64,000 nt of DNA, from NCBI GenBank assembly GCA_028716245.1, contig JAQUQW010000002.1, forward strand, positions 72,947 through 136,946. Reading direction: 5' to 3'. Below are positions 10,271 through 62,840 of the stretch, piece after piece. The position numbers and the translations under genes are program-made. Every line of letters begins with the position of its first letter. Positions within the stretch are counted from its first letter, which is position 1. The notes under the pieces are model-generated. The model made no database searches, was not told the origin of the DNA, and saw only the letters and a list, made by a program, of their open reading frames with translations. The stretch is from Candidatus Omnitrophota bacterium (GTDB lineage: Bacteria; Omnitrophota; Gorgyraeia; Gygaellales; Profunditerraquicolaceae).

Positions 10271-11271
10271 TGAAAGGAAAGGAAGAAAGAGCTTTGAGAA
10301 AAATTCTGATTTTGTTATTTTTCGCGTTTATTTTATCCGGCTGCGCTACTTATAAATTTCAGAAATCCGTTTCATCCGGAAATCAGGGTTATTTGGTTAC
10401 TTATGATGGGGATCCTATTTTGGAATATACCATTGGGAAAGAAAAAACCCTGCCGGATTTAGCTTTAGCCAAGGAGCGTTTTAAGCGCCGCCGGTCGACA
10501 ATTGAGTATTATTATAAGCAGAGCGGCCAGATTGAGTCCCGATTTAAAGAATTCCTCTGGGATGTGCCGGCAATGTGCATGGATTTTGTGAGCGGTGTTT
10601 TACGTTGGCCGTTTATTGCCGTATCCGATTATAAATACAACCATAATCCTAAATATAAAGAAAGAATGGACAGGCTGGATCAAGAGAGGGAGGCATTGGA
10701 GAAAGCCCGGATAAACAGCTTAAAAGAAAAACTTACTGCCTATATCGCTCAAGATCTAGCCAAAGAACATTTACCACAAAGTAAAGTTGTTGAAACCCCC
10801 GTTACGCCTAAATCTCCTGAGCCGGTTGTTTTGCCGTTTGCTCAGGGGGCCTTGCCGCCAGCCCCACCGGTATCTTTGGCAGTTCAGACGCAAGTTCCTA
10901 AAAAAATAGAAACACCTAAGACCGAAACACCAGTTATAAAAGAACCAATTTCTCCGGTCTTGGCCACCGCACCGGCACCAATCAAAACAGTATTGGAGCC
11001 TCCGGTTGCCGTGATTACTGCAAAACCCATAAAAGGTTATTCTCCGCTTACGGTAAAATTTTCCGGGCAGAAATCATATTCTAAAAACGGCAAAATCGTT
11101 TCTTATAATTGGGATTTTGGCGACGGAGATACCTCATCCAAGAAAAATCCCGAGAACACTTATTGGAGTACTGTTTATGGAGCGCGTAATTTTACCGTAA
11201 CCCTTACAGTCAAGGACGCAGCAGGCTCAACCTCCAGCGCCACTTCAATAATCGAAGTATCCACCCCCTAA
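10270..11271 (+). CDS. lipoprotein with proline-rich linker and C-terminal PKD domain
   Basis: Lipobox LSGC, a Pro/Thr/Val-rich spacer, and a PKD-like domain (YNWDFGDGDTS...FTVTLTVKDAAG). Confidence 0.7.
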   Translation: MKGKEERALRKILILLFFAFILSGCATYKFQKSVSSGNQGYLVTYDGDPILEYTIGKEKTLPDLALAKERFKRRRSTIEYYYKQSGQIESRFKEFLWDVPAMCMDFVSGVLRWPFIAVSDYKYNHNPKYKERMDRLDQEREALEKARINSLKEKLTAYIAQDLAKEHLPQSKVVETPVTPKSPEPVVLPFAQGALPPAPPVSLAVQTQVPKKIETPKTETPVIKEPISPVLATAPAPIKTVLEPPVAVITAKPIKGYSPLTVKFSGQKSYSKNGKIVSYNWDFGDGDTSSKKNPENTYWSTVYGARNFTVTLTVKDAAGSTSSATSIIEVSTP

Positions 11272-11311
11272 AGGCGAAACAGTTTCCCAGCTAATCGGGA
11301 AACAGGGTTAA
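11272..11311. repeat. family-2 repeat unit (CGAAACAGTTTCC + GCTAATCGGGAAACAG modules) flanking transposase 2
   Basis: Contains the near-palindrome GAAACAGTTTC and the AATCGGG module. Its inverted counterpart is at 11801-11847 on the other side of the transposase gene. Confidence 0.7.
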
Positions 11312-11788
11312 CTAAAGTAAAAATTTATTCAAAAGCCCGTAATTATTACCAAGATTTCTTTCCGTGTAACTGCAAAAAGTATAATCTTTGGGGCTGTTTA
11401 CTAATTTTGCCCTTACAGGGTTTGTTTCGATATAGGAAATACAGTCTAGCACATACCGATTTTTAACAATCAATTTCGCTTTAAATTTACCCTGCCAAAG
11501 ATGGCCAACCTTGTTGTATTTTTTATTATAATAAGCAGTATAGGAACGTTGCAGGCATTGCATAAAATTAGATAATTTTTCCGGCACGACCGGTTGCCCC
11601 ATCAAATGGACATGATTAGGCATTAAGCAGTAACCATATAGATGGAAAGAATACTTCATTTTGTAATGTTTTAGTTGTCCAAGGTAGAACCCGAAGTCAC
11701 TTTTTTCAATAAAAACTATTTGTTTCTGATTTCCTCTTGCATAAATATGATAACAGGCGTTTTCGATTAATATTCTTGTTTTTGTCAT
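11312..11788 (-). CDS. IS200-like Y1 (HUH) transposase, RAYT-like (copy 2)
   Basis: 158 aa with HUH motif (PNHVHLM), conserved YHIYARG N-terminus and the Tyr-containing C-terminal helix region (YIETNPVRAKLV). It has family-2 repeats on both sides. Confidence 0.8.
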   Translation of the reverse strand: MTKTRILIENACYHIYARGNQKQIVFIEKSDFGFYLGQLKHYKMKYSFHLYGYCLMPNHVHLMGQPVVPEKLSNFMQCLQRSYTAYYNKKYNKVGHLWQGKFKAKLIVKNRYVLDCISYIETNPVRAKLVNSPKDYTFCSYTERNLGNNYGLLNKFLL

Positions 11789-11800
11789 TTCTCCTCCTTA

Positions 11801-11847
11801 GCCCCCGTTTCCCGATTGGGTCGGAAACAGTTTCGGGTTTTGGGTTT
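11801..11847. repeat. family-2 repeat unit (CCCGATTGGG + GGAAACAGTTTCG modules)
   Basis: GCCCCCGTTTCCCGATTGGGTCGGAAACAGTTTCGGG is an inverted copy of the element at 11272-11311. Confidence 0.7.
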
Positions 11848-13375
11848 AATTTAGTAGTTTATCCAGGCTTCGGTATTGCACTGCCTCCGCAACATGCTCG
11901 GCGCAAATTATTTCCTCTTGGTTTAAATCCGCAATCGTCCGGGCAACTTTCAGTATTTTATCATAAGCCCTGGCGGAGAACCCTAATTCGGACATCGCCA
12001 TCCGTATCAACTTTTGCGCGTTCTCATCCAGAAGACAATGTTCCTTGATTAATTTACTCTGCATTTGGGCATTGCAAAATATTCCCGTTGATTTAAATCT
12101 TTCCCGTTGAATGGCGCGCGCATTTTCCACGCGCTGCCTGATTGCTTGCGAGGTTTCCGTGTTTTTTATCTCGGATAATTCCCGGTATTTTACCTGCGGA
12201 ACTTCAATATGTATATCAATCCGGTCAAGCAGGGGGCCGGAAATCTTGCCTAAATAATTCCTGATTTTTGTGGTATTGCAATGGCAGGTTTTCTGCGGGC
12301 TAAAATAATTCCCGCAGGGGCAAGGGTTAAGGGCTGCGGCCAAAATAAAATTAGCCGGAAAAACCAAAGTCCCTTTTAAGCGGCTGACGCAAATTAAATT
12401 ATCTTCCAGCGGTTGCCTCAATGCTTCCAAGGCCTTACGGCTGAACTCCGGTAATTCATCCAGAAATAAAACTCCATGATGAGACAGGCTTATTTCTCCC
12501 GGCTTAGGAATGCTGCCTCCGCCAATTAATGCGATATCTGAAATACTGTGGTGGGGAAAGCGGAAAGGCCGGGTTCCGATAAAACCATCCTTGTTTAACA
12601 ATGCCTTTGCTACTGAATGGATCCGGGTTATTTCCAGGGCTTCTTGTAAGCTGAGGCTGGGCATAATGGTGGGGATTCTTTTGGCAAGCATAGTTTTACC
12701 GCTGCCCGGCGGCCCCAGCAAAACAATATTGTGCCCGCCTGAGACAGCTACCTCAATAGCTCGCTTAGCAAAATATTGGCCTTTGACTTCGGAAAAATCC
12801 AGGCTGTAATTCGCGTTTGTCTTAAGGATTTCTTCGGGAGCCAGTTTAAATGGCTGCCTGAGGCCGGGGTCGGCTAAGAATTGCACGACTTCTTTTAAAG
12901 TTCTTAAAGGCCAGGCAGATATTTCCGGTATAATCCCGGCTTCTTTGGCATTTTCTTCGGGAAGTATAAGGTTCTTCAGCGGTAATTTTGCCATGGTTAA
13001 ACTTATTGCCAGGACTCCGTGAACTGGCCGTAGCTGCCCGTCCAGAGATAGCTCTCCCAGAAAAGAGTAATTTTTAATAAGATCCTCATTAATTTGTTTG
13101 GTTGCCGCCAGAATGCCTAAAGCAATGGCTAAGTCAAAGCATGCCCCCTCTTTTTTGATGTTGGAAGGGGCCAGGTTCACGGTTATTCTCTCCGCGGGCC
13201 ACTGGAAACCCGAATTTTTGATTGCCGAGCGCACCCTCTCTTTGCTTTCTTTTATCGCCGTGTCGGCTAAACCGACCAAGGTAACTACCGGAAGCCCCCT
13301 GGCAACATCGATTTCTATTTCAACCGGGTAGGCTTCCAGGCCCAAGAGGCCAAAGCTGTAAATTTTTGAGATCAT
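11846..13375 (-). CDS. comM: Mg-chelatase-like AAA+ ATPase ComM/YifB
   Basis: 509 aa with N-terminal Lon-like S5 fold domain, Walker A GPPGSGKT and a C-terminal ChlI/YifB region. Confidence 0.88.
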   Translation of the reverse strand: MISKIYSFGLLGLEAYPVEIEIDVARGLPVVTLVGLADTAIKESKERVRSAIKNSGFQWPAERITVNLAPSNIKKEGACFDLAIALGILAATKQINEDLIKNYSFLGELSLDGQLRPVHGVLAISLTMAKLPLKNLILPEENAKEAGIIPEISAWPLRTLKEVVQFLADPGLRQPFKLAPEEILKTNANYSLDFSEVKGQYFAKRAIEVAVSGGHNIVLLGPPGSGKTMLAKRIPTIMPSLSLQEALEITRIHSVAKALLNKDGFIGTRPFRFPHHSISDIALIGGGSIPKPGEISLSHHGVLFLDELPEFSRKALEALRQPLEDNLICVSRLKGTLVFPANFILAAALNPCPCGNYFSPQKTCHCNTTKIRNYLGKISGPLLDRIDIHIEVPQVKYRELSEIKNTETSQAIRQRVENARAIQRERFKSTGIFCNAQMQSKLIKEHCLLDENAQKLIRMAMSELGFSARAYDKILKVARTIADLNQEEIICAEHVAEAVQYRSLDKLLN

Positions 13376-16265: not shown

Positions 16266-16777
16266 TTGAGCAGGAGCTAATTTTATTAGGCCTGTTACGC
16301 CAAAGCCCCAAGCACGGTTACGAAATTAAGGTAAAAGCGCGCGAAATCCTCTCCTCTTTTGCCGGAGTCCAGTTAAAGTCAATATATTACCCCCTAAGAA
16401 TTTTAGAAAAAAAAGGCCTGCTTACCAAGTGCGCGGATAAATTAGGCAGCAGGCCAAGGCGTTTTGTCTATTGCCTTACCGAAAAGGGTAAAGAGCGCTT
16501 TGAGATATTGCTTAATAAAAACCTGCTGGATTTTACGCGCCCCCAGTTTACTCTTGACCTAAGTTTATATTTCCTCAACTTCTTGAAACCAGCTTTAGCC
16601 CGGCGCCGGCTAAAGAAGAGGCTGGAAATTTTAGGAAAGATCTCCAGCGGCATAGAAAAGATGCTAAAAACCAAAGAATTAAAAGAATCCCTGGCGATTT
16701 CCCGGATTATGGAACATAATCTCTGCCTGCTGCGTGCCGAGTCTTCCTTCCTGAGTTCACTCCTCCAAAAAATTTAA
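16262..16777 (+). CDS. PadR-family transcriptional regulator
   Basis: PadR winged-helix signature (HGYEIKVKAREIL...YPLRILEKKGLL). The stop TAA at 16775-16777 overlaps the first bases of REPIN A. Confidence 0.75.
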   Translation: MIEQELILLGLLRQSPKHGYEIKVKAREILSSFAGVQLKSIYYPLRILEKKGLLTKCADKLGSRPRRFVYCLTEKGKERFEILLNKNLLDFTRPQFTLDLSLYFLNFLKPALARRRLKKRLEILGKISSGIEKMLKTKELKESLAISRIMEHNLCLLRAESSFLSSLLQKI

Positions 16778-16840
16778 ATAGGGACAGCGACCATTTTTCT
16801 CTAAGCTAAACTTCCAAAAAATGGTCGCTGTCCCTATTTA
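16776..16840. repeat. REPIN-like element A (family 1: AAATAGGGACAGCGACCATTTTT, 17-nt spacer, reverse complement)
   Basis: The left arm overlaps the PadR stop and the right arm AAAAAATGGTCGCTGTCCCTATTTA ends at 16840. Confidence 0.85.
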
Positions 16841-16896
16841 TTTAGGCATAAAAGACGTTGAAAATACTATGGTTAGAACAAGGTAACGGTTCAATA

Positions 16897-18819: not shown

Positions 18820-20327
18820 AGTTAGAAAAGCTTATTTTATGCGCGGTTTTTATTTTGTCCTTTGCAGGATTGGTTTTGGCCGAAGATATTATCGTTGAAG
18901 CTGCTAAAGCGTCTGAGCCGTCAGCAACATTTACCGATAAAGTTTCTTTGGATTTAAAGGGGGTTGATATTAACGAACTTTTTAAATTACTTTCCGCGAA
19001 AACCGGGATAACGATTATTCCGTCTCCGCAGGTCAGCGGGAGGATCACGGTATTTATGAATGATTTAAGCTTTTCCGATGCGCTGGATGTAATTGTTACC
19101 ATGCAGGATTTGGCTTATGAAAGAAAGGCAAATGTAGTCAAGGTAATGACTTTGGCAGAATATGAAAAGGCCTACGGAAAGAAATTCGGAGAGCGCAAGG
19201 AAACCCGCACCTTTAAGCTTGCTTATGCTAAGCCGGCAAACGTGCTCAATGTGATCAATTCCCTGAAATCCGAGCTGGGCAAGATTATTTCCGATGATTC
19301 AACCGGCACCGTCATTATTATAGATACTCCGCAATCCATGGAAGTTATGGCTAATACGATAAAAGAGCTTGACCGGCCCCTGGAGACGCTGGTCTTTGAT
19401 GTCAACTACGCGCGTTTTACCGATATAAAAAATTACCTTAATGAACTGATTACTCCGGGAGTCGGGCAGATAATCGTGGATGAAAGAAGCAGCAAGGTGG
19501 TTGTTTATGACCTGCCGCAGCGCTTAAACCGGATAAAGAAACTTATGCGGGAGTTTGACGAACAATCGCGCCAGGTGCTGATTACCGGCGAAATTATTGA
19601 AGTTACGATCGATGATAAATTCCAAAGCGGTATTGCCTGGGATAAGATTTTTAACCAAGCGGACCTGCATAACCTGGAGTTGGTGGGGAATTTTCCCATA
19701 AGCCCGGCGCTTTCCAATTATGGAAAGATCAGCTTAGGCACATTAGCCCAGGACCATTATAATATAGTAATGAATATGCTTAGTACTTACGGCTCTACGA
19801 AAGTGCTTACCCGGCCAAGGATTGTTGTGGTCAATAAGGAGGAAGCTAAAATACTTGTCGGTACGCGCGAGGCTTATGTAACCTCGACCCAAAGCCAGGG
19901 ACAATCCACGACCCTTACCGCGGAAAGCGTGCAGTTTATCGATGTTGGGTTAAAACTTGCGGTTGTGCCGACCATTGGCGCCGATGGTTTTATTACAATG
20001 AAGATAAAACCTGAAGTCAGTTCAGTGCAGAGCACATTAACCACAACTGCCGGCACGGTTGTGCCGATAGTGGAAACCTCGCAATCCGAGACAGTGGTTA
20101 AAGTAAAAGACGGCAATATGCTGATTATCGCCGGACTGCTTAGAGAAGAAAATGACAAAAGTGATTCAGGGTTGCCTGGCTTATCGCGCCTGCGCATCTT
20201 GGGCCATTTATTTTCTACGAGGGGAAGGGAAAAGAAAAGAAAAGAGTTGGTTATATTTATAACTCCTACAATAATAACCGGAACAAACAATATCAGCCGT
20301 GAGGTAAAGAGTGAAAGCAAACAATAA
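18816..20327 (+). CDS. gspD: secretin (GspD/PilQ family), paralog 1
   Basis: Signal peptide, N0/STN-like domain (LKGVDINELFKLLSAKTGITIIP), and a secretin C-domain (VLTRPRIVVVNKEEAKILVG...ITPTII). Confidence 0.85.
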   Translation: MKLEKLILCAVFILSFAGLVLAEDIIVEAAKASEPSATFTDKVSLDLKGVDINELFKLLSAKTGITIIPSPQVSGRITVFMNDLSFSDALDVIVTMQDLAYERKANVVKVMTLAEYEKAYGKKFGERKETRTFKLAYAKPANVLNVINSLKSELGKIISDDSTGTVIIIDTPQSMEVMANTIKELDRPLETLVFDVNYARFTDIKNYLNELITPGVGQIIVDERSSKVVVYDLPQRLNRIKKLMREFDEQSRQVLITGEIIEVTIDDKFQSGIAWDKIFNQADLHNLELVGNFPISPALSNYGKISLGTLAQDHYNIVMNMLSTYGSTKVLTRPRIVVVNKEEAKILVGTREAYVTSTQSQGQSTTLTAESVQFIDVGLKLAVVPTIGADGFITMKIKPEVSSVQSTLTTTAGTVVPIVETSQSETVVKVKDGNMLIIAGLLREENDKSDSGLPGLSRLRILGHLFSTRGREKKRKELVIFITPTIITGTNNISREVKSESKQ

Positions 20328-22524
20328 ACTCATAAATAGGGACAGCGACCATTTTTTCAAAAACCTTTGGATTCGTAAAAAATGGTCGCTGTCCCTATTT
20401 ATCCTGCTATCTTTAATCAGCCCGCTTGGCGCAAAAAGCGATTCCGCGCAGGAAGATCAGATAGTTGAAGAGAGTCCGAAGGATAAGATATCCTTGGACC
20501 TGAAAAATGTGGATATTGTTGAGTTATTGCGGATTGTCTCGCTTAAAACCGGAAGGACAATCGTTCCCAGCAAGGATGTTTCCGGCCGCATCACCATCTA
20601 TTTAAGCCAGGTTGCCTTTGATGACGTCCTGGATATTATCCTGCTTACTCAAGGGTTGGCCCTAAACAAAAAAGATAACGTGTATTATGTGATGAGTGAA
20701 GCCGAATACAAAAAAATGTATGGCCGGGATTATATTGACCAGAGAAAAATTGAAACAGTCAAGCTTTCCTACGCCAAGCCTTCCATAATTTTTAACGCGC
20801 TCGGCCAGCTTAAATCCGATGTCGGTAAAATCGTAGTTGATGAAGCCAGCGGCACGATAATCCTGATCGATATCCCGGAAAAGCTGGAACTGCTTCAAAA
20901 AACAATCAAAGAATTAGACCAGCCGTTGACTACCGCTATCTATGACCTTAATTACATTAAGCCTGCCGATGCCAAAACCCAGCTTAACGCCGCCATTACT
21001 CCGGGTACAGGCGAGGTAATTATCGATGAAAGAAACGGCAAGGCCATAATTTCGGACCTGCCCAGAAAAATAGATAAGTTAGGGATGCTGGTGCGTGAGA
21101 TAGACGAGGAATCCCGCCAGGTTTATATTGAAGCCGATATCGTCGAGCTTACTTTGGATAATCAATTCCAAAGGGGGATAGACTGGGAAAAGCTATGGAG
21201 TTCTGCGGCAATGAATGGATTGGATTTTTCCGGGAATTTTCCTTTAGCCGCTTTAACGGCAGTGGGGGCAATAACTCAGAAAATCTCAGTGGGTACCTTT
21301 GCCACCAATCATTACCAGGCGATCCTGAATTTTCTAAATACCTACGGAACTACGCATGTTGTTTCCCAGCCGAGGATTGCCGTAGTCAATAACGAAGAAG
21401 CCAATATTATGGTCGGTACGCGCGAGGCGTATATTACTCAGACGCAAAGCCAGGCAACCGCGACCACCGTAACTTCTGAAACCGTAGAGTTTATCGATGT
21501 TGGTGTTAAATTAAAAGTTGTACCTAAAATCAGCGCCGATGATTTTATTACGATGAAGATAAAACCTGAAGTCAGTTCTGTTACCAGGACGCTTACTACT
21601 TCTCTGGGTAGCGTTGTTCCAATAGTGCAAACTTCTCAGTCAGAAAGTGTCGTAAAAATAAAAGACGGGATGATGATTATGATCGCCGGAATGACTAAAG
21701 TTGAGAAGACCGACACAATCAACGGCTGGCCGGTATTGTCAAAAATCCCTTTCTTAGGAGTATTGTTTAGCAATCGCGTGAAGGATACCAAGAGGACCGA
21801 AGTAATTATTTTTCTTACCCCGCACCTGTCGCGCGGCGACGCGGGGTTAAGAGGGGATGAGATAACTAAAATATTGCCGATGGAGAATTTACCGGAGCGC
21901 TTGCAAAACAAGGTAGTCAGGGATAAAGCAATAGATAAGGGGCTATTTACTCCTGAAAAGATGAAGGAAGAATTGGCCAAGAAGCAGGCAATAGAGGTAG
22001 CTGCCGAAGAAACAGCCGAAAGGACCGCCGCAGACAAATTGGCAAAGGCGGCAGAAAAGGCAGAAAAGGCAGCGGTCAAACAAACAGTTGCCGCCGAAGT
22101 AAAGAAATCCAGCCCAAGAGAAGCCGCCAAAGAATATTACCAAAAAGGCCTGCGCGCGCAGGCGGATTCCGATAATGAAGAAGCAATCCGTAATTTTATA
22201 AGAGCCGCGCAGTTGGATAAAAAATACGCCGCCGCTTACAATAGTTTAGGGATTATTTATGAGCAGGAGAGTAAGCCCGAGAAATCCGAGGAGATGTATC
22301 TAAAGGCCGTTTCAGCTGACGAGCGTTATTGCCCGGCCTATTCAAATTTAGCTTTATTTAATGAAAATCGCAAAGATTTTACCAAAGCTTTAGAGTATTG
22401 GCGCAAACGCGTTTTATACGGCGATCAAAATAGCGAATGGACAAAAAAGGCTATACAGCGGATAAAAGAACTTGAGAGCAACAAAGGCGAAACTGTTTCC
22501 GATTCAATCGGGACAGGGGGGTAG
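20311..22524 (+). CDS. gspD: secretin (GspD/PilQ family), paralog 2, with C-terminal TPR extension
   Basis: N0-like domain (LKNVDIVELLRIVSLKTGRTIVP), secretin C-domain (VVSQPRIAVVNNEEANIMVG), then a Lys/Ala/Glu-rich linker and TPR repeats (AIRNFIRAAQLDKKYAAAYNSLGIIY...). Its ATG overlaps the paralog-1 stop by 17 nt. Confidence 0.85.
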   Translation: MKANNKLINRDSDHFFKNLWIRKKWSLSLFILLSLISPLGAKSDSAQEDQIVEESPKDKISLDLKNVDIVELLRIVSLKTGRTIVPSKDVSGRITIYLSQVAFDDVLDIILLTQGLALNKKDNVYYVMSEAEYKKMYGRDYIDQRKIETVKLSYAKPSIIFNALGQLKSDVGKIVVDEASGTIILIDIPEKLELLQKTIKELDQPLTTAIYDLNYIKPADAKTQLNAAITPGTGEVIIDERNGKAIISDLPRKIDKLGMLVREIDEESRQVYIEADIVELTLDNQFQRGIDWEKLWSSAAMNGLDFSGNFPLAALTAVGAITQKISVGTFATNHYQAILNFLNTYGTTHVVSQPRIAVVNNEEANIMVGTREAYITQTQSQATATTVTSETVEFIDVGVKLKVVPKISADDFITMKIKPEVSSVTRTLTTSLGSVVPIVQTSQSESVVKIKDGMMIMIAGMTKVEKTDTINGWPVLSKIPFLGVLFSNRVKDTKRTEVIIFLTPHLSRGDAGLRGDEITKILPMENLPERLQNKVVRDKAIDKGLFTPEKMKEELAKKQAIEVAAEETAERTAADKLAKAAEKAEKAAVKQTVAAEVKKSSPREAAKEYYQKGLRAQADSDNEEAIRNFIRAAQLDKKYAAAYNSLGIIYEQESKPEKSEEMYLKAVSADERYCPAYSNLALFNENRKDFTKALEYWRKRVLYGDQNSEWTKKAIQRIKELESNKGETVSDSIGTGG
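20334..20402. repeat. REPIN-like element B (family 1), 69 nt, lying in frame inside the 5' end of secretin paralog 2
   Basis: Arms are at 20334-20358 and 20378-20402. It is translated as INRDSDHFFKNLWIRKKWSLSLF within the predicted signal peptide. Confidence 0.85.
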
Positions 22525-22566
22525 GTATCATCCCCATGTCCCGAACAACTTGGAAACAGTTTCGAT
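22508..22566. repeat. GC-rich hairpin (CGGGACAGGGG...CCCCATGTCCCG) overlapping the secretin-2 stop, plus a family-2 core GGAAACAGTTTCG
   Basis: 12-bp stem with one mismatch at 22513-22548. The palindromic family-2 core is at 22551-22563. A likely terminator/REP-like site. Confidence 0.55.
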
Positions 22567-22571
22567 AAATA

Positions 22572-25359: not shown

Positions 25360-25423
25360 GGGGATATCATGTTTAAGATTAAAAATGTCCAATTTGAAAT
25401 GTCCAATGTGAATAAAATAGGGA

Positions 25424-25479
25424 CAGCGACCGTTTTTTGGTCGTTTTGCTTAGAGAAAAATGGTCGCTGTCCCTATTTA
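25424..25479. repeat. REPIN-like element C (family 1, CCG variant of the arm)
   Basis: AAAATAGGGACAGCGACCGTTTTTT, a 13-nt spacer, then AAAAATGGTCGCTGTCCCTATTTA. Confidence 0.85.
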
Positions 25480-25586
25480 AAAAAGAGTATAATGCGCAAT
25501 GAAAACGAGTAGTTTACCCATTGAAAGAATATATGATAAATAGTATATTATCTGTAGATGAAAGAAGGGCAGCAGAAGAGGATGAA

Positions 25587-26927
25587 ATGAATAAATATAC
25601 TGTTGGCATAATTCTGGGTATTTTAGGCGCGGGGTTAAATTGCCAGGCGCAGGCGAATCAGGTCTTAGAGCAGGCGCCTTTTGTCCTGGAAGATAATTTA
25701 GCCGGCCCGGCCACGGTAGAACCAGAGCCGATCTTTGCCACAGGAATAATCAAAACTATCTGTGTATCTTATGAGTTTACCGGCCAGGTGAGTTTAGAAG
25801 CCAGCACCAATGGAGGCGTTGATTACACAAAAATAATCAATGGCTCACCGCTTGTTGATGGATTTATTCCGGGAAACCAGCTGCGCTTTAGGGCAAATAT
25901 CGGACCGGCAAGCAGTTTAAAAAAATTAACCATTGGTTACACTGATTCATCAGGAGTATCCAGATTATACCGCAACCCCGATTTAGCAAATTATAAAAAT
26001 CACCGTGAAATTTATATTTCCGGAGGCAGCCAGGAAGTATTTAATTATCCCCTGGAAATAAAATTGGATCCTTTAGCAGCCGGCACTGAAATTTATTTTA
26101 CCGCGGCTGACGGTCAAACTCCGCTTTATTATTATTTAGAAGATCCCGCGCGCTGCTACGTGAAGGTTCTCCAGATCCCCAAAGAAGGCACAAAAATTTA
26201 TGTTTACTGGAAAAATAGGGACAGCGACCGTTTTTCTCCAAGTGAAACAACCAAAAAACGGTCGCTGTCCCTATTTTTAGACGGCAATAAAGTTTTTCCG
26301 TTTTTTGAGGATTTTAACGATGCCTCTTTAAACGCGGAAAAATGGGAAATAATTCCCGGGCTAAAAAAAGAATACAGCATTAAAGATGGATATTTACGGA
26401 TTAAAGATTGTTTAGTGGTAACGCGAAATTTTAAAACCCAACAGGGCATCCTGGAGTTCAAAGCCAAGGCGGAAGAGAACGCGGGGATCCAGGTAGTTGT
26501 GCGCACAAAAGTTTCCGCGGGGTTATCTCCTTACGAACAAATAGTTTACTCTTCGAATTATCCGGGAGCAGAACATACTATCGCGATCAATAACATTGCC
26601 AAGGTGAATATAAGTAATCCGATAAAACCGCTTACCTATTATATCTATCAAGCAACCATCAATTCCACCGGCATTCTTTTTGAAAGATACAGTGAAGACC
26701 GGAAGGAAAAACAGGCCGAGATAAAATTTTTGGATGTGGGGAATTTTAGTGAAGGTTATATTGGTTTAAAAGCGGATGCCGCGCCGTTTAATGCCGGCAG
26801 TGTTTATTTCGATTGGATCAGGGTCAGGCCGTATGTGGAAGTTGAACCAAAGGCGGTGATAAATAGGGACAGCGACCGTTTTTCTCTTCTAGGCGACCAT
26901 GAACCTGTTGCTGAGGTGATGAGATGA
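25587..26927 (+). CDS. secreted DUF2341-like + LamG/concanavalin-like domain protein, carrying an in-frame REPIN insertion
   Basis: Signal peptide MNKYTVGIILGILGAGLNCQAQA preceded by an AGAGGA RBS (the ORF track start at 25521 is probably too far upstream). PLEIKLDP...YYYLED...YVYW resembles DUF2341. NDASLNAEKWEII...GYLRI resembles LamG-like. The ORF is uninterrupted through REPIN D. Confidence 0.6.
   Translation: MNKYTVGIILGILGAGLNCQAQANQVLEQAPFVLEDNLAGPATVEPEPIFATGIIKTICVSYEFTGQVSLEASTNGGVDYTKIINGSPLVDGFIPGNQLRFRANIGPASSLKKLTIGYTDSSGVSRLYRNPDLANYKNHREIYISGGSQEVFNYPLEIKLDPLAAGTEIYFTAADGQTPLYYYLEDPARCYVKVLQIPKEGTKIYVYWKNRDSDRFSPSETTKKRSLSLFLDGNKVFPFFEDFNDASLNAEKWEIIPGLKKEYSIKDGYLRIKDCLVVTRNFKTQQGILEFKAKAEENAGIQVVVRTKVSAGLSPYEQIVYSSNYPGAEHTIAINNIAKVNISNPIKPLTYYIYQATINSTGILFERYSEDRKEKQAEIKFLDVGNFSEGYIGLKADAAPFNAGSVYFDWIRVRPYVEVEPKAVINRDSDRFSLLGDHEPVAEVMR
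26214..26277. repeat. REPIN-like element D (family 1, CCG variant) embedded in frame in a coding sequence
   Basis: Translated without a stop as NRDSDRFSPSETTKKRSLSLF between the DUF2341-like and LamG-like parts of the host ORF. Confidence 0.85.
26860..26886. repeat. solo family-1 REP arm (left arm only) forming the 3' end of the DUF2341/LamG ORF
   Basis: AAATAGGGACAGCGACCGTTTTTCTC with no intact right arm. It is translated as INRDSDRFSL at the C-terminus. Confidence 0.75.
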
Positions 26928-26932
26928 AAGCG

Positions 26933-26968
26933 GCCCTATTTCCCGATTGGGTTGGAAACTGTTTCGGA
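26933..26968. repeat. family-2 repeat unit (CCCGATTGGG + GGAAACTGTTTCGG) immediately upstream of the giant gene
   Basis: GGCCCTATTTCCCGATTGGGTTGGAAACTGTTTCGGAGG. Its 3' end supplies the GGAGG ribosome-binding site 9 nt before the ATG at 26980. Confidence 0.7.
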
Positions 26969-26979: not shown

Positions 26980-29900
26980 ATGAGTAATCGGCAGAAAGCA
27001 AAAATAGCTACGCGGGTAATCCTGGTGATGCTCTTTACAGCCGCCTTCGGGATGTTCTTGTCTTACCTATATCATCACTCCATCGAAGCGGTAGAGACAA
27101 ACTCTGTTGTCATAAGTAACCCTACCGCCACCACGGCAAATGCCAGCCAGAGGAAATTAGCGCGCGCCACCAACGGAGATTTATACGCGGTTTATGCCCG
27201 TCTTGACGGGGCAAACCAGCAGATTTATTATGCCAAGTCCACGGATAACGGCGCAACCTGGATAGAACAGGGCAAGGCCCACGCCGATGTAGCGGCTGAG
27301 CAGAAAGAACCGGCAATCGCCATCGATTCTTCGGATAATCTTTACATTGCCTGGGCCGGCAAGGGCTGGGGAACCAACACCGCTAATTTTAATATTAAAT
27401 ACCGTAAATATAATAAAGCAACCGCGTTATGGGATACACAGGAATCCGTGACCGACGCTGCGTATGACCAATTCGCGCCGGCGTTAGCTTTGGACTCAAG
27501 CAATAACATTCATGTTGCCTGGTATGGCAAAGGCTGGGGAACCAACACCGCCAACAATAATATTCAATATCGCAAAAGGACAACCTCCTGGCAAACACAG
27601 GAATCCGTGACCGACGCTGCGTATGACCAATTCGCGCCGGCGTTAGCTTTGGACTCAAGCAATAACATTCATGTTGCCTGGTATGGCAAGGGCTGGGGAA
27701 CCAACACCGCCAACAATAATATTCAATATCGCAAAAAGACAGCCTCCTGGCAAAAACAGGAATCCGTAACCGACGCTGCTTACGATCAACTTTCGCCATC
27801 GCTTGCCCTGGACTCAGCAGATTACGTTTACGCGGTTTGGGCCGGCAAAGGCTGGGGAACCAACACCACTATTGATAACATTGAATATTCAAAACGCGCC
27901 ACTCTCAGCACTGACTGGGCAGCCAACCGTGAGTCAGTTACTGACAGCGCAAGCGCGCAACTTTCGCCATCGCTTGCCCTGGACTCAGCAGATTACGTTT
28001 ACGCGGTTTGGGCAGGCAAAGGCTGGGGAACCAACACCGCCAACAATAATATTCAATATCGCAAAAGGACAACCGCCTGGCAGGGGCAATCAGGAATTAC
28101 GGATTTGGCGTCAGACCAAACCAATCCCACGCTTTTTTGGCATCCACAGCCAACCATATTCACCAGCGTAAAAACAAACATTATTACCTCAGGCCACAGT
28201 TTTATCTGGACTACCGGTTCAGGAGTTAAATTCTACGCCAGCGACGGAATTATCTTCCCTAAGGTTTATTTTGTTTTGAGCCCGGCGAATTCCACGCCTA
28301 CTGTCGGCTCAAGCACGGATGTAACGATTACCGCCGCCAAAAAAGACGCGGCTAACGCCGATGTTACCGTAACCGATTATAATGTGGCAACCACAGTAAG
28401 TGTAAGCGCCGACGGGGCGGCTAAATTTACCGCGCCGAGTTCCGGAAACCCGATTTCTCTTCGGGATATTGATTGGAAAAGCGGCGCAGCCAGCGTAACG
28501 ATTACCGATGATACCGCCCAAAGCGTTACCGTTAAGGCGGCAGACCAGAATAATGCTTCGATCACCGGAACAACCTCAGTTTCCTTCCAGCCGACAGCGG
28601 CAGATAAATTACTCCTTAATCACCCCGCGGCTATTGATGCCGGCACCCGCGCCGCGTATATAGTAACCCTGGCGGATGCCCGTAACAATAACGTAAATGC
28701 CGGCTCAGGCGGACAGGTAATTTATCTGTTTACAACTTCCGCAAGCGCCAACGCGAAATTTTACAACGCGGCCTCCGGCGGCAAGGCGATTACCAGCGTA
28801 ACTATTCCCAGCGGCAGTTCTCTGGCGAGCGCCTGGTATTACGACGATACTGCCGGCACTTATACCATAACCGCTTCAGATGCTTCCCCTGCAAACGGCG
28901 CAATTGGGCTGGCTGACGCGCAGGATACAATCAAAGTTAACCCCGCAGCCGACCTGAGCAAAAAATATAAGATTAAATTTGACAATGATGAAGCGGAAAT
29001 CGGCGATTTCCGGGCCAAGGACTTCAAACCTCACGTAAAAATGAAACGCTGGGGCGAAGAATGTTACTTTAGCATCGAGTTTCCCGAGAGCAAAATACCC
29101 GCCAAGGATAAATCCGTAGGCGTAGAGGCAGACAAGATAAAATGGAAGTCACCGGATTCAGAGGCGCATTTTTACAAGAAGGGGAGCAAGCAAATCAGCG
29201 CCAAGGATAATAAAGGAAAAAGCCGCGGCTTTTTGAAGAATGAATCCGGCGCTTTGGAGTTTGAAGTGGTTTTGGATAAGAAACCGGCCTCCAATATAAT
29301 CAGCTTACCCATAGAAACCAAGGGCCTTAAATTCTATTATCAGGGGCCGTTAACTGCCGAAGAAATAAAGCAGGGAATAGTCCGGCCGGATGAGGTGGTG
29401 GGGTCTTACGCGGTGTATCATGAAAGTAAAAATGACGGCGCATATAACACCGGCAAGGCCTTCCATATTTACCGGCCAAAGGTCATCGATGCCACGGGGA
29501 ATACGATTTGGGGCCAGCTGGACATCGACGCAGTAAAAGGCGCCTTAACCATCACTATTGACCAGTCCTGGCTAAATAGCGCGGCTTATCCGGTAACCAT
29601 TGACCCTGAATTTGGTTATATGTCGATAGGTTCAAGCTCTATCCCTTTGAACAATATAACCCGCGGTTCAAAATTTACCGCCCTCGTAATGACGCCGGCT
29701 ACAATCGGAGCTTATTTGGGAAATACCGATGCCACTGCTTCTCACACCGCCAAGTTCGCTATTTATAAGGCGAGCGATTCATCCCTTGCAGGCCAGACCC
29801 AGGAAGTAACTATTCCCGCCTCATCTACAGGCTGGTATACGGGCGTCTATATTGTTGGCCCAAGCTTAACCGCCGTAGATTACGCCTTAGTGGCCAAAGC

Positions 29901-43435: not shown

Positions 43436-43551
43436 AAATAGGGACAGCGACCATTTTTCCCATTCTTTCCGTCATTCCCGCGTAAGTGGGAATCTGATCC
43501 CCGCTTTTGCGGATATGACAATTTTGAAAAAATGGTCGCTGTCCCTATTTA
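43436..43551. repeat. REPIN-like element F (family 1) with an extended 65-nt spacer containing two additional small hairpins
   Basis: Left arm at 43436-43460 and right arm at 43526-43550. The spacer has ATTCCCGCGTAAGTGGGAAT and CCGCTTTTGCGG hairpins. The right arm encodes residues KKWSLSLFI of the downstream signal peptide. Confidence 0.8.
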
Positions 43552-44315: not shown

Positions 44316-44412
44316 CTTCAGTCGTTCTTTGATAGATTAGCTTAAATATTTTAGTTAGATTTCCTTTTTTCTGGCGTCTATTGATAATAGAAGAAAGGGA
44401 GGAAAAACTAAT

Positions 44413-45084
44413 ATGCCTAGAATTGCCAGAGTTGTAGCGATAGGTCAACCTCACCACATTACACAAAGAGGTAACTATCGGCAAGACGTATTCCTTAACG
44501 CGGATAACCGAAAACAATACCTTGCCTGGATTAATGAATATAGCGTAAAATACGGGGTTCTCGTTTTGGCCCATTGCCTGATGGCAAATCATGTTCACTT
44601 TATCGCTATTCCTAATGAAAGCGATTCGCTGGCTAAAACATTCAATACCGCTCATATGCGTTATTCCCAGTATTTTAATAAAAAGTTGAAGCAGAGCGGG
44701 CATCTTTGGCAGGGACGTTTTTATTCTTGTGTGTTGGATCAATCTCATCTTATACTTGCCGCTCGTTATATTGAAAGGAATCCTGTGCGCGCAGGACGCG
44801 TAGAGAAACCTTGGCAGTGGCCATGGTCAAGCGCCGCCGCCCATACGAATAGGAAGGATAATAAATCGATTGAGTTTGGGGATCTTCTCGGGATTATCGG
44901 CATGTCAAGCACCGCGTGGGAAAAATACATTGATTCCGCGGAAGAGGACAATTTTTTACAGGATATAAGAAAGCATACGTATGCCGGTCGTCCCCTCGGG
45001 GCGCCGGAATTTACTATAGGTTTAGAGGAAAAATGTGGTAGAAGGTTATGCGCGTTACCGATAGGGAGGCCAAGAAAAAGCTAG
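44413..45084 (+). CDS. REP-associated tyrosine transposase (RAYT; IS200-like Y1 HUH transposase), copy 1
   Basis: 223 aa with HUH motif (ANHVHFIAI) and a conserved C-terminal Tyr-helix region (YIERNPVRAGRV). Inverted family-1 REP arms lie 97 nt upstream and directly after the stop. Confidence 0.85.
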   Translation: MPRIARVVAIGQPHHITQRGNYRQDVFLNADNRKQYLAWINEYSVKYGVLVLAHCLMANHVHFIAIPNESDSLAKTFNTAHMRYSQYFNKKLKQSGHLWQGRFYSCVLDQSHLILAARYIERNPVRAGRVEKPWQWPWSSAAAHTNRKDNKSIEFGDLLGIIGMSSTAWEKYIDSAEEDNFLQDIRKHTYAGRPLGAPEFTIGLEEKCGRRLCALPIGRPRKS

Positions 45085-52643: not shown

Positions 52644-52644
52644 A

Positions 52645-53883
52645 ATGATATTTTTATATAAGGCTAAGAAAAACCTTAAGGAGGTTGTCGAGGGCAAAAT
52701 CGACGGGGGCAGTGTCGAGCAGGTGCTTGAAGATCTGCAGGCAAAAGGGCTTGTGCCGATTTCCGTCGAGCCGTTAATCGGCCCGCCTGTTTCCGCAGCG
52801 GCATCCGCAAAAACTTCCCCCAAACCCGAAACAGTTTCCAACCCAATCGGGAAATGGGGTTTAAAAAACCTAGTTTTGTTCACCCAGAAACTTTACAATC
52901 TGGTTAATTCCCGCGTAGAGTTACTTAGCGCCTTAAGGCTTTTAGAAAAGGACTGCCAAAATCAGACCGAAAAATTATTACTTTCCGATATCATAAAGAA
53001 TATTAAAGACGGTGTTTCATTTTCCAATTGCCTTAGCCGCTACCCGCAGTATTTCCCGCAATTTTACGTCAATATTGTCCACACCGGCGAGGCAACCGGC
53101 AAGCTCAAAGATTCCCTGATCCAACTTTTGGACTATCTGCGCCGGTTTGAAGATTTAAGGACCAAGGTAAAACAGGCGCTTGCTTATCCAATATTTATGA
53201 CTTTGGTTGGCGTAGGCACGATATTTGTAATGCTTACTTTTGTCCTGCCGAGGCTGGCCGGGATGTTTGAAGATTTTCAGGCGCAGCTGCCCTTACCCAC
53301 ACTTATTTTACTCAATATCGCGAATTTCCTTAAAGCTTATTGGGTATTTGTAATCGGATTTATTGTTATTCTTGTCTTTGCGTTTAAGGTCAACGGCGCA
53401 GGCAAGGAAAGTGTTTTTAGCCGCCTGAAATATCATATTCCCATTGCCAAAGATATTGTTTATAAACAGTCGGTGGCCAACTTTTCCAGAAGTTTATCCC
53501 TGCTTTTGCAAAGCGGAGTGAACCTGCTTTCCGCCTTGGCCGACGCCGGTCCGATAATCGGCAATCCGGTTTATGTCAGCCAACTTGAACAGGTGCGCCG
53601 TGATATCAGCCAAGGCATGCCTTTTTCAGACTCCTTGGCCAAATTCAAAATCTTCCCGGATTTTTTTGTGCAGATGATCCGCGTCGGCGAAGAAGGCGGC
53701 AGGCTGGACAGCGTACTGGCGGATATCGCCGAGTCTTATGAAAAAGAGATTGAGGCAGATTTAAAGGTCGTCAGTTCCCTTATTGAACCGGCGATAATTT
53801 TGGTCCTGGGCCTGGTGATCGGGGCGATGGTTATTGCCATGCTCCTGCCGATATTTAATATGAACAGCCTTGTCGGTGGCTAA
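52645..53883 (+). CDS. gspF: platform protein GspF/PilC
   Basis: 412 aa. The N-terminal FLYKAKKNLKEVVEGKIDGGSVEQVLEDLQAKGLVPISVEP is the typical GspF/PilC start, followed by two T2SSF domains with three TM segments. It carries a family-2 repeat in frame at 52825-52859. Confidence 0.85.
   Translation: MIFLYKAKKNLKEVVEGKIDGGSVEQVLEDLQAKGLVPISVEPLIGPPVSAAASAKTSPKPETVSNPIGKWGLKNLVLFTQKLYNLVNSRVELLSALRLLEKDCQNQTEKLLLSDIIKNIKDGVSFSNCLSRYPQYFPQFYVNIVHTGEATGKLKDSLIQLLDYLRRFEDLRTKVKQALAYPIFMTLVGVGTIFVMLTFVLPRLAGMFEDFQAQLPLPTLILLNIANFLKAYWVFVIGFIVILVFAFKVNGAGKESVFSRLKYHIPIAKDIVYKQSVANFSRSLSLLLQSGVNLLSALADAGPIIGNPVYVSQLEQVRRDISQGMPFSDSLAKFKIFPDFFVQMIRVGEEGGRLDSVLADIAESYEKEIEADLKVVSSLIEPAIILVLGLVIGAMVIAMLLPIFNMNSLVGG
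52825..52859. repeat. family-2 repeat unit (CGAAACAGTTTCC + CCCAATCGGG + GGAAATGGGG modules) embedded in frame in gspF
   Basis: Translated as PKPETVSNPIGKWG in the linker after the N-terminal cytoplasmic domain. The ORF stays open. Confidence 0.75.
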
Positions 53884-55335: not shown

Positions 55336-55865
55336 GAAAACTAACCACCAAGGAAAAAATATTATCGCTATGTATCGGTTTATTGTTAGGGTTATTTGCG
55401 GTTAAAAGTTTTGTCCTGGGCCCGATATATGAAAAAACCGCTGTTTTTTCCGCAGAGATCGAACAGTCTAAAATGGCCATCCATAAATACCTGGCCTTGG
55501 AACATAATCGCCCGGGAATTCTTAAGGCGCAGAAACAAATCGAAGGTTATTCCAGCCTTCGGGGCTCTGATGAAGAGAAATCAGCGATGGTGATGAGCAA
55601 AGTTGAGGCTGAGGCCAGGAAATCCAAACTGCAAATATTAGATATGAATGTTATCGGTTCCACCAAGGTAAAAGGCGGAGTAGTGACGCTTTACCGCGTT
55701 TCCTTGCGCGCCGAAGGCCAGCTGAAAAATATTTTGGATTTTATTTCCGGTATTGAAGGGGCCAACATTTTGTTGCAAGTTGAGAAAATCACTTTGTCTG
55801 CCAAGGATGAAACTGGGAGCGTCTTAAAAATAGACACCACTATATTAGGAGTTTCATTTTCATAG
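55332..55865 (+). CDS. PilO/GspM-like inner-membrane protein
   Basis: 177 aa with an N-terminal TM, a coiled-coil region and a periplasmic domain. Its position between the PilMN-like gene and the pseudopilin gene supports the call. Confidence 0.55.
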   Translation: MRKLTTKEKILSLCIGLLLGLFAVKSFVLGPIYEKTAVFSAEIEQSKMAIHKYLALEHNRPGILKAQKQIEGYSSLRGSDEEKSAMVMSKVEAEARKSKLQILDMNVIGSTKVKGGVVTLYRVSLRAEGQLKNILDFISGIEGANILLQVEKITLSAKDETGSVLKIDTTILGVSFS

Positions 55866-55866
55866 A

Positions 55867-55921
55867 CCCCATTTCCCCTTCAGGTCCGAAACAGTTTCGA
55901 TTCTAAAGAGGAAATGGGGCC
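55867..55921. repeat. family-2 repeat: 10-bp stem CCCCATTTCC/GGAAATGGGG enclosing the palindrome CGAAACAGTTTCG
   Basis: Perfect inverted repeat at 55867-55876 and 55912-55921, with the palindromic core at 55888-55900. It lies between the pilO-like and gspG genes. Confidence 0.8.
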
Positions 55922-61525: not shown

Positions 61526-62754
61526 TGGAAAAAATCGCAATTACCGGTATTGGAGTTGTCAGTCCTTCGGGTATCGGAAAGCGGCAGTTTTGGGCAAACC
61601 TTAAAAGCGGTCGTTCATTTATTAAAGAGATTACCCGTTTTGACGCTTCACTATACGCTGCGCATATCGCCGGACAGATTGATGATTTGGAAAAATACAG
61701 CCATATCTCCGAAAGGCTTTTAAAAAAAATCGATGCTTTTTCGCATATGGCGCTGGTTGCTTCGGAGATGGCCCTGCAGGATGCCGGGATCGATATTAAA
61801 AATGAGGATCCCAATCTTGTGGGGATTTTTTTGGGCAACGCTATCGGCGGCTGGCTCTATGCCGAAACTGAATTAAGGGATTTATATTTAGAGGGCCGGG
61901 AAGGTGTTTCACCTTATATGGCCTCTGCCTGGTTTCCCGCCGCTCCCCAGGGACAGGTCTCCATTTATTATGGAATAAAAGGTTTTAGTAAGACCGTGGT
62001 CAGCGACCGGGCCAGTTCTTCGATGGCTTTAGGGTACGCCCGGAAAGTTTTAGCGAAAAATAAACTGAATATGATTTTGGCAGGCGGTATGGAGGCTCCG
62101 GTTACCCCTTATGCCTTATTATGCTGTAATACCTATGGGGCGCTATCCAAAAATAATCATAATCCCCAGGGGGCGTACCGGCCATTTGATAAACAGCGCA
62201 ATGGTTTTGTAATCGGCGAGGGCGCCGGAATTGTAGTCATGGAAAGTGTCCGGCGCGCCCAAAAAAGAGGCGCAAATATCTTGGGGGCAATCTGCGGATA
62301 CGGCACGACTTGCGACGGGGTGGACAGGATCAATTGTGCCAGCGACGGAAAAGAGCTGGCGCGGGCAATTAATATGGCGCTTAGTGACGCCAAGGTAAAT
62401 CCCGAAGAGATCGGTTATATTAGTTTAGATGGTTTAGCAGTTGATCTCTGGGATAATTCTGAAATCAAAGCTTTAAAGATGGTTTTCGGGGATAATTTAA
62501 AGAATATTCCGTTGAGTTGCCCCAAATCCATGTTTGGAAATTTGCTTGGAGCATCGGGTGTGCTGGATATGATTATCGCGCTTTTAACTATGAAGCATAG
62601 TTTAGTCGCCCCGACTTTAAATTTAGAGGTTCCGGCTTTAAATAATTTAAATTATGTGGCCAAGAAAGCCAGGGAATATAAAGTAAACAAGTCTTTGATC
62701 ATCTCGCGCGGCCGCGGCGGGATTAATGCGGTTTTAGTAGTTGAAAAAAACTAG
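61525..62754 (+). CDS. ketosynthase-like protein lacking the Cys-His-His triad (chain-length-factor-like partner)
   Basis: KS fold (ITGIGVVSP..., GGMEAPVTP), but the active-site Cys position reads SDRASSSMA, the first His position reads ISLDGLAV and the second reads KSMFGNLLGASG. Its start overlaps the upstream KS stop (ATAATGG). Confidence 0.75.
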   Translation: MEKIAITGIGVVSPSGIGKRQFWANLKSGRSFIKEITRFDASLYAAHIAGQIDDLEKYSHISERLLKKIDAFSHMALVASEMALQDAGIDIKNEDPNLVGIFLGNAIGGWLYAETELRDLYLEGREGVSPYMASAWFPAAPQGQVSIYYGIKGFSKTVVSDRASSSMALGYARKVLAKNKLNMILAGGMEAPVTPYALLCCNTYGALSKNNHNPQGAYRPFDKQRNGFVIGEGAGIVVMESVRRAQKRGANILGAICGYGTTCDGVDRINCASDGKELARAINMALSDAKVNPEEIGYISLDGLAVDLWDNSEIKALKMVFGDNLKNIPLSCPKSMFGNLLGASGVLDMIIALLTMKHSLVAPTLNLEVPALNNLNYVAKKAREYKVNKSLIISRGRGGINAVLVVEKN

Positions 62755-62840
62755 AAACAGTTTCCAAGCTAATCGGGAAACAGTTTCTGCTTTAACTTGG
62801 AAACAGTTTCGAAGTTAAAGAGGAAATGGGGGTAAAGGGA
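62754..62840. repeat. composite family-2 repeat cluster (three GAAACAGTTTC cores plus AATCGGG and GGAAATGGGG modules)
   Basis: AGAAACAGTTTCCAAGCTAATCGGGAAACAGTTTCTGCTTTAACTTGGAAACAGTTTCGAAGTTAAAGAGGAAATGGGGG. It includes the hairpin TTAACTTGGAAACAGTTTCGAAGTTAA. Confidence 0.8.

Follow-up and report, generated by a model that had tools for sequence, protein, structure and literature searches.

The DNA considered here is a 64,000-nucleotide (nt) stretch of a Candidatus Omnitrophota bacterium (contig JAQUQW010000002.1; the whole stretch is referred to as the window), and its central feature is a small gene on the minus strand (11312..11788) that we call RAYT2. This open reading frame (ORF) encodes a 158 aa protein of the Y1 HUH tyrosine transposase-like type with a Pfam Y1_Tnp match (E = 1e-10), and its start is preceded by a strong ribosome-binding site, AAGGAGG. 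The same-strand upstream neighbour, 57 nt apart, is a yifB/comM-like gene of the Mg-chelatase-family AAA+ type (11846..13375, minus strand; Pfam Mg_chelatase, ChlI and Mg_chelatase_C), which serves as the syntenic anchor of the locus. RAYT2 is bracketed by two units of a short repeat, designated family B. The 5' unit (11800..11840, plus strand; profile E = 4e-8) reads CCCCCGTTTCC-CGATTGGGTC-GGAAAC-A-GTTTCGGG, also written CCCCGTTTCC-CGATTGGGTC-GGAAAC-A-GTTTCGGG, and lies between the yifB stop codon and the RAYT2 ribosome-binding site with its CCCC end proximal to the gene. The 3' unit (11270..11309, minus strand; profile E = 2e-8) is inverted with respect to the 5' unit, begins directly after the stop codon of a convergent PKD-domain gene and contains a 7-bp stem, GTTTCCC/GGGAAAC, with the loop GATTAGCT. 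The gene is thus flanked by inverted repeats, as a preliminary description of this DNA had stated, the arms 11266-11307 and 11803-11844 being 81% complementary over 42 nt. A terminator or promoter role of these two units was considered and rejected, as no terminator-like or promoter-like site overlaps them.

The RAYT2 protein displays the motifs H59-V-H61, W98-Q99 and Y119-IET-N123-P124. In an alignment of 31 sequences, made of RAYT2, 29 homologues and the other Y1 protein of the window (RAYT1, see below), H59, H61, W98, Q99, Y119, N123 and P124 are invariant, so that the Y1 catalytic residues on which the transposase call depended (H59, H61, Y119, N123 and P124) are all in place, and the HxH and YIxxNP motifs of Escherichia coli TnpA_REP fall in register with them. 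A Ser motif, F[SC]SY, occupies residues 138-141 with S140 invariant, and the C terminus follows 17 residues further on. The sole NCBIfam match is REP_Tyr_transpos (NF047646, equivalog), at 77.4 bits against a cutoff of 80, and the same scan gave no IS200 match. An AlphaFold (AF2) model with a mean pLDDT of 85.5 has as its best PDB match 4ER8, E. coli TnpA_REP bound to its REP hairpin, with template modelling (TM) scores of 0.78/0.75 and 16% identity over the structural alignment; against the transposases of IS608, ISDra2 and IS200 the TM score is only about 0.5 (~0.53 for IS608 and ISDra2). In the published scheme class 2 TnpA_Y1 proteins are defined by Y---NP, and subclass 2.1 by NHVH, W[EQ] and YIELNP (Quentin et al. 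2018, PMC6006769, Table 1); subclass 2.1 corresponds to the Group 1 RAYTs (Bertels et al. 2017, PMC5581495) and to the TIRYTs (PMC3733652). Judged by its Y---NP Tyr signature and conserved W, RAYT2 is a predicted class 2 TnpA_Y1 protein; the published motif tables, together with the flanks of its relatives, place it as probably closest to TIRYT / subclass 2.1 rather than to the canonical GTAG-REP RAYTs.

Family B is a real family, far beyond chance, because its core GAAACWGTTTC occurs ten times exactly in the window against 0.03 expected, a count that 0 of 100 shuffles reach; the 13-mer core with one mismatch allowed gives 8-9 matches against 0.1 expected. The profile derived from the units recovers every family-B site listed here with E-values from 6e-9 to 6e-3, and its search of the 64 kb yielded no other convincing site; all seven positions named in the preliminary description proved genuine members. 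Units in like orientation follow the pattern CCCCnTTTCC-CGATTnnnnn-GGAAAC-W-GTTTCG, and the basic module is a hairpin, GTTTCC-CGATTnnnnn-GGAAAC, with a 5-7 bp stem and a loop of ~10 nt starting with CGATT. The repeat had been described as three modules arranged around an odd palindrome. The palindrome GGAAAC-W-GTTTCC is real and is the junction of two modules, because successive modules stand one base apart; a family-B 'single unit' therefore consists of one complete module followed by the opening arm of its neighbour. The other proposed modules did not hold up as such: GGAAATGGGG is the CCCC end CCCCATTTCC read on the opposite strand, and CCCGATTGGG alone is not enriched in the window (5 matches with one mismatch, 5.8 expected), its three exact copies all falling within family-B units. 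We therefore rejected CCCGATTGGG as a module of its own and assign it to the hairpin loop.

Singlets, inverted doublets and arrays are all represented among the copies, nearly all of which lie directly against a stop or start codon in a very short gap between genes. An inverted, REPIN-like doublet with facing CCCC ends is formed by 22483..22522 (minus strand) and 22530..22566 (plus strand), so that the copy formerly placed at 22551, although a true family member, is only one arm whose partner lies at 22483. The left arm of the doublet supplies the last six codons (…GETVSDSIGTGG*) and the stop of a secretin/TPR gene (20311-22524), an arrangement also present in the metagenome-assembled genome (MAG) STD1_64 (JAQURC01, L034), the closest relative, which shows 85-93% nucleotide identity to window positions 4885-26652 and 45483-53318. 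A single unit (26932..26968, plus strand; profile E = 1.6e-7) occupies the 52-nt gap between gene 25521-26927 and a giant ORF (26980-42603), while two head-to-head units sharing one common core (55864..55921; CCCCATTTCC-N10-CGAAACAGTTTCG-N10-GGAAATGGGG) are located between genes 55332-55865 and 55944-56369. The last copy is a three-module hairpin array (62754..62833) that starts at the stop codon of gene 61525-62754; it carries three GAAACAGTTTC cores, at 62754, 62777 and 62800, in agreement with its earlier description as a three-core composite. One further unit (52822..52862, minus strand) lies inside a T2SSF (GspF/PilC-like) gene (52645-53883; Pfam T2SSF 2.6e-57, in two stretches) and hence is not extragenic: it is in frame and codes for about residues 60-73, the linker that joins the N-terminal segment to the first T2SSF domain. 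A partial match at 49598-49623 was rejected as a repeat remnant, this being conserved coding sequence in both the window and STD1_64.

Folded as single-stranded DNA, the doublet region 22478-22570 reaches -27.1 kcal/mol (z = -7.7), the array stretch 62748-62836 -17.6 kcal/mol (z = -6.0) and 55862-55923 -13.5 kcal/mol (z = -4.1), and the segment 11266-11312 beside RAYT2 is marginal (-7.0 kcal/mol, z = -2.3). The idea of a strong hairpin in every single unit was accordingly dropped, strong folding being seen only in doublets and arrays. An Rfam scan found no tRNA or other family at the gathering threshold anywhere in the window (1-64000), and the repeat was accordingly rejected as a known RNA family. 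Canonical REPs combine a strong palindrome, a GT[AG]G foot and a high copy number, and family B falls short of this definition; it is an atypical, weak REP, like those on record for subclass 2.6 and class 3 (PMC6006769).

Orthologues of RAYT2 with 63-89% identity are found in seven other Omnitrophota genomes (L003, L025, L030, L079/L080, L081, L082 and L083). In all eight genomes, the window included, the gene directly follows the yifB/comM-like gene in the same orientation, with a gap of about 57-120 nt, and the gene on its other side differs among genomes (PKD, QueC-like, RlmN, folE); the upstream neighbours DUF212, YkuD, AccA and PadR are as syntenic as yifB. Every orthologous locus has the inverted family-B bracket, always with the CCCC end proximal and the GAAACWGTTTC core distal. 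The 5' unit lies at the equivalent place in L003, L025, L030, L079, L081 and L083, and in the diverged genomes the flanks are short arrays, such as GGAAACTGTTTCC-CGATTGAGTC-GGAAACTGTTTCC in L083. Between the window and the STD1_64 orthologue the dN/dS of RAYT2 is 0.07 at a dS of 0.68, compared with 0.05 for the neighbouring yifB; RAYT2 is under strong purifying selection. At least 913 protein homologues exist, and the best 120 are almost all 157-163 aa long, those with a name all being from Omnitrophota; JGI labels one homologue 'REP element-mobilizing transposase RayT'. The exact RAYT2 protein is on record only in a 1,068-bp Logan contig. Searches revealed no close relative on plasmids or phages: plasmid-borne relatives are all below 42% identity, a phage record contains one 23%-identical match, and viral contigs gave 0 matches to the family-B repeat, which led us to reject a phage or plasmid origin. 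Nor is there a tnpB adjacent to RAYT2 in the window or in the other loci examined, and the window holds one gene copy of the RAYT2 type. The fixed slot, the low dN/dS and the lack of close plasmid or phage copies thus argue for a domesticated RAYT, not an insertion sequence.

Two genomes show rearrangements at this slot. In L083 (1-9905, JACQXK01) conjugative-transfer genes (TraC, TrbI, TraE, TraG and a coupling protein) replace the body of the yifB/comM gene, and a 148-aa C-terminal yifB fragment is left beside the RAYT gene, which looks like the insertion of an integrative element into comM. In L050 (6564-7157, JAUYBI01, MAG C19_metabat.bin.11_sub, hereafter C19) a third kind of Y1 gene takes the yifB-downstream slot instead of RAYT2. 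Its product is 34% identical to RAYT2, has the motifs NHIH, FWEDRF and YIDLNP, and its gene has a flanking palindrome of its own, TCTAACC-T-GGTTAGA; it is still followed by the family-B 3' unit, and the genome being otherwise close to L079, this looks like a cassette replacement.

More distant relatives connect family B to a described class of repeats. Homologues of about 160 aa at 45-59% identity are no longer beside yifB, and relatives at 61% identity or less occur in unrelated genomic contexts. The distant homologues are flanked by longer hairpins which keep the CGATTG loop and have different yet mutually complementary stems (GGGACACTTCTC / GAGAAGTGTCCC in L094, GGGACACCC / GGGTGTCCC in L087 and L088, CCAGGTGC / GCACCTGG in L091); the loop is likewise kept where the stem changes from TTTCC/GGAAA to TTCTC/GAGAA, in L084 and L094. 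A fixed-register comparison of 24 units revealed paired C-G to T-A and T-A to C-G switches at stem pairs 2 and 3. This covariation, although drawn from few independent lineages, supports the view that the hairpin would be a constrained feature of the repeat. The 5' arms of the distant-homologue hairpins carry GGGGACAC, and relatives at 40-59% identity are flanked by inverted repeats of the GGGGWSAS type, which define the TIRYT/TIRtron elements (Di Nocera et al. 2013, PMC3733652). For relatives of ~290-320 aa at 40-45% identity, GGGGWSAS is found upstream at a distance of 56-76 nt and its complement downstream at 10-34 nt, against a background of 2.8% of 200-nt segments. The flanks of RAYT2 itself are without the motif; what comes nearest to it there is CGGGAAAC and, for some copies, also CGGGACAG. 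Because the flanks of the relatives carry GGGGWSAS in the TIRtron arrangement, family B can be read as a derived, shortened TIRYT inverted repeat, and RAYT2 is, as far as these flanks indicate, a TIRYT-like RAYT of short form whose repeat is derived and not of the GTAG type.

We also scanned a strict 25-nt pattern of the repeat in 185,579 species genomes (one per species; the window's species is not among these GTDB representatives). The scan returned 77 loci, the majority in Omnitrophota MAGs, several of which were deposited under the label 'uncultured Planctomycetia'. The question raised earlier of whether the repeat occurs outside the window is thereby answered: about 16 Omnitrophota MAGs have 2-9 copies each, where ~1e-4 per genome are estimated by chance. 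The other matches are singletons in unrelated, non-Omnitrophota taxa and fit chance, because roughly 35 chance matches are estimated for the whole collection. At orthologous sites some copies persist and others differ. The doublet 22483-22566 is conserved in STD1_64; the genic copy 52822-52862 is conserved there and still in frame, next to a 12-nt in-frame length difference; and the three-core array 62754-62833 is kept in CG11 (L038), a genome ~75% identical in nucleotides. Differences consist of a full doublet that STD1_64 carries between a stop codon and a start codon (window ~49623-49627) and that is missing from the window, a three-core array in E14 at window ~61525, where the window genes abut, and one truncated unit in CG11 where the window has the two-armed 55864-55921. 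Since orthologous sites differ in this manner, copies are acquired, disappear and change in size over the time in which species diverge.

The other Y1 gene of the window, RAYT1 (44359-45081, plus strand; a stop-to-stop frame of 241 aa, or 223 aa when counted from the first start codon), shares 34% identity with RAYT2, has a C-terminal extension and is bracketed by inverted copies of another repeat, family A (TAGGGACAGCGACC), unrelated-looking to family B. Family A counts 22 arms in the window, where 0.2 are expected; most of them pair up in inverted doublets with a spacing of about 44 nt (16779-16836, 20337-20397, 25418-25475, 26216-26273, 26864, 43439-43547, 44295, 45091, 46239-46295, 48706-48764, 53888-53946 and 58311-58368). 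The family-A sequence AGGGACAG matches 7/8 positions of the TIRYT motif GGGGWSAS. In the gap downstream of the PadR-family gene the window has a family-A doublet (16772-16853), while STD1_64 and L079 (4631-4714) have a family-B array within conserved flanks, so families A and B use or replace each other at one site. The proposal that RAYT2 and its repeat form a second RAYT-repeat pair therefore stands insofar as RAYT1 occurs with a distinct family A in the same window, whereas the word 'cognate' expresses association only. Apart from these elements, the giant ORF 26980-42603 (5,207 aa) includes tandem repeats of 159 nt (27319-28065), repeats of 336 nt (33532-34133) and, at 30724-31357, long Gly-rich GGN runs, and the STD1_64 DNA matching its two sides sits on different contigs. 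Genes from 13470 to 62754 are nearly all on the plus strand.

We consider it likely that RAYT2 is a RAYT-type Y1 (HUH) single-strand DNA endonuclease/transposase, domesticated and passed on vertically, that comes with a cognate short repeat and belongs to a short (~160 aa) Omnitrophota branch of a TIRYT / TnpA_Y1 subclass-2.1-like lineage. With less confidence, the conservation of the bracket suggests that RAYT2, and not RAYT1, would act on family B. By analogy with E. coli TnpA_REP and IS608 TnpA, RAYT2 would bind the family-B hairpin in single-stranded DNA, for instance at replication forks, and cleave beside it via Y119, with H59 and H61 holding the metal ion; it might then excise, copy or iterate modules while its own gene stays put. 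Spread of family B would be slow and mostly local. As an extension that we regard as doubtful, the ~160-aa Omnitrophota proteins might be a distinct RAYT lineage long anchored in a 'Y1 slot' downstream of yifB/comM and acting mainly in cis, adding or deleting 23-nt hairpin modules singly. Unlike the transposition of REPIN doublets, such an activity would give tandem arrays and a low-copy family within tens of kilobases, and the slot would be an exchangeable cassette site for Y1 genes, as in C19.

Several observations weigh against a RAYT with its cognate repeat. We infer the relation of enzyme to substrate from co-location and co-inheritance, and C19 retains family-B units though a different Y1 gene fills its slot. 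RAYT2 scores 2.6 bits under the curated NCBIfam RAYT cutoff. On the side of the repeat, the units have neither of the feet seen in canonical REPs, GT[AG]G or CGTC, four single units folded as single-stranded DNA do no better than shuffles (z +0.6 to -2.3), and most stem positions are invariant, the covariation coming from few lineages. Copy number also looks low, the 2-9 strict-pattern matches per related genome being unlike a genome-wide REP population. Moreover, in STD1_64 seven of the nine matches fall in DNA orthologous to the window, where uniform scatter over at least 941 kb would give about 0.3, and the corresponding fractions are 4/7 in CG11 and 2/3 in E14. With most matches in window-orthologous DNA, family B is clustered around RAYT2, which could result from local action or from younger, less-degraded copies. 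The RAYT-REP reading of the preliminary description is supported, with the refinement that the repeat is low-copy and clustered instead of present in hundreds genome-wide.

Three other explanations were weighed. In the first, RAYT2 would be the transposase of an autonomous IS200/IS605-type insertion sequence, whose left and right ends would be the flanking hairpins and whose solo ends or miniature inverted-repeat (MITE-like) derivatives would be the dispersed copies. A Y1_Tnp family protein, subterminal inverted hairpins at both ends and distant relatives on some plasmids fit this picture, which we nevertheless judge most improbable: the gene occupies one chromosomal slot in eight genomes at 63-89% protein identity, evolves under a dN/dS resembling that of its housekeeping neighbour, has the class 2 Tyr motif Y---NP and not the Y---Q of IS200, lacks an NCBIfam IS200 match and an adjacent tnpB, is single-copy in the window, and is structurally nearer to TnpA_REP than to the IS608/ISDra2 transposases. 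It is also highly unlikely that the selected role of the Y1 protein is tied to YifB/ComM, an AAA+ family linked to the processing of incoming single-stranded DNA, with the repeats as side products. The linkage is confined to one clade, with relatives at 61% identity or less in unrelated contexts, and the upstream genes DUF212, YkuD, AccA and PadR are equally syntenic; the case for such a tie consists of the same-strand adjacency kept in eight genomes despite a changing downstream neighbour, of the different Y1 gene in exactly that slot in C19, and of the RAYT gene of L083, which has stayed beside the 3' part of a yifB gene split by a conjugative element. As the yifB linkage is lost in distant relatives, vertical inheritance of one ancestral insertion explains the adjacency.

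Unlikely, too, is the reading in which the repeats are host elements with a function of their own (hairpins at transcript 3' ends, attenuators, or a site for a dimeric protein on GGAAAC-W-GTTTCC) and the Y1 gene merely happens to lie between two of them. An 11-nt perfect palindrome with a 1-nt spacer does have the look of a binding site on double-stranded DNA, the hairpins of single units are weak, almost every copy sits right at a stop or start codon where the gap between genes is very short, several copies are retained at orthologous sites down to ~75% nucleotide identity, and C19 keeps units without RAYT2 in the slot. Such elements would hardly be expected to form an inverted bracket of fixed orientation at every orthologous locus, with a diverged form flanking the relatives in other contexts, or to show clean presence/absence differences and variable module numbers among close relatives; one copy lies in frame within coding sequence, no terminator-type T tract follows the units, and there is no Rfam match. 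Co-option by the host and RAYT-driven spread are compatible, however, and are not mutually exclusive.

Returning to the domesticated RAYT, its resemblance to described systems is partial in each case. With the TIRYT/TIRtron elements (PMC3733652; subclass 2.1, PMC6006769; Group 1, PMC5581495) RAYT2 shares closely similar motifs (NHVH / WQ / YIETNP versus NHVH / W[EQ] / YIELNP), a conserved Ser-Ser motif after the core (F[SC]SY in RAYT2), a gene bracketed by inverted repeats that are not GTAG REPs, and moderately abundant repeat families occurring as singles, dimers and clusters. It differs by its length (158 aa versus a median of 238 aa; its close homologues all measure 157-162 aa), being without the distal helix-turn-helix (HTH) / Bac_DnaA_C-like tail, by flanks without the GGGGWSAS that its relatives at 40-59% identity have, and by a repeat that is a small hairpin with a conserved CGATT loop and tandem iteration. 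E. coli RayT/TnpA_REP (YafM; a REPtron with REP/BIME; 4ER8, subclass 2.2) is the best structural match, with HxH and YIxxNP aligned, and is likewise a single-copy gene (for RAYT2, within the window) flanked by inverted copies of a dispersed repeat; the E. coli REP, though, is GC-rich, forms an imperfect palindrome with GTAG at its 5' foot and exists in hundreds of copies, whereas family B has an AT-rich 5-7 bp stem, no GTAG and few copies. From IS200/IS605 TnpA (IS608, ISDra2), with which it has in common the Y1 HUH fold and the presumed recognition of subterminal single-stranded DNA hairpins, RAYT2 is set apart by the multi-copy, mobile nature of those elements, their Y---Q motif, their frequent tnpB and the TM score of ~0.53.

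The REPIN-RAYT system of Pseudomonas fluorescens SBW25 (Bertels & Rainey 2011, PMC3116915) is comparable in that two or more RAYTs coexist in one genome, each paired with a separate repeat family. Shared features are also the inverted doublets folding into long hairpins (here 22483-22566) and vertical inheritance with copies persisting at orthologous sites. The REPIN populations of SBW25 reportedly number hundreds of copies dispersed genome-wide. Family-B copies, unlike these, are few and near the RAYT gene, and form tandem module arrays besides doublets. The unit at 52822-52862, in frame in a gene linker and non-disruptive, recalls the Rickettsia RPEs and other intragenic REPs (cited in PMC3733652 and PMC6006769); the RPEs are CGTC-tagged and have no dedicated transposase, whereas here we have a single case in a RAYT-associated family.

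Much of this has precedents. RAYTs are single-copy, vertically inherited genes with a housekeeping-like distribution (PMC5581495), genomes with several RAYTs, every one of which has a repeat family to itself, have been described (PMC6006769), and the same goes for inverted doublets, for in-frame copies within genes and for RAYT relatives that are flanked by TIRs and have moderately abundant repeat families (PMC3733652, PMC6006769). The literature searched contained no report linking RAYT, REP, REPIN or TIRYT with Omnitrophota. What is new here is the phylum, the particular repeat, the short-form protein clade and the visible transition from the GGGGWSAS hairpin to the GTTTCC/GGAAAC module.

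RAYT2 and family B leave the established picture of RAYTs unchanged. RAYT/REP systems have so far been studied mostly in Proteobacteria and Cyanobacteria, and the present locus shows a small-genome, uncultured phylum maintaining at least two RAYT/repeat systems side by side. The family-B profile is usable for annotation, and the repeats may help to break metagenome assemblies. Orthologous gain and loss, two families at one site, an in-frame genic copy and the replacement of a Y1 gene in its slot make this material suited to the study of repeat turnover. Finally, the locus links the 'TIR' elements of TIRYTs to REP-like hairpins, in which the CGATT loop stays constant while the stems covary and are remodelled.

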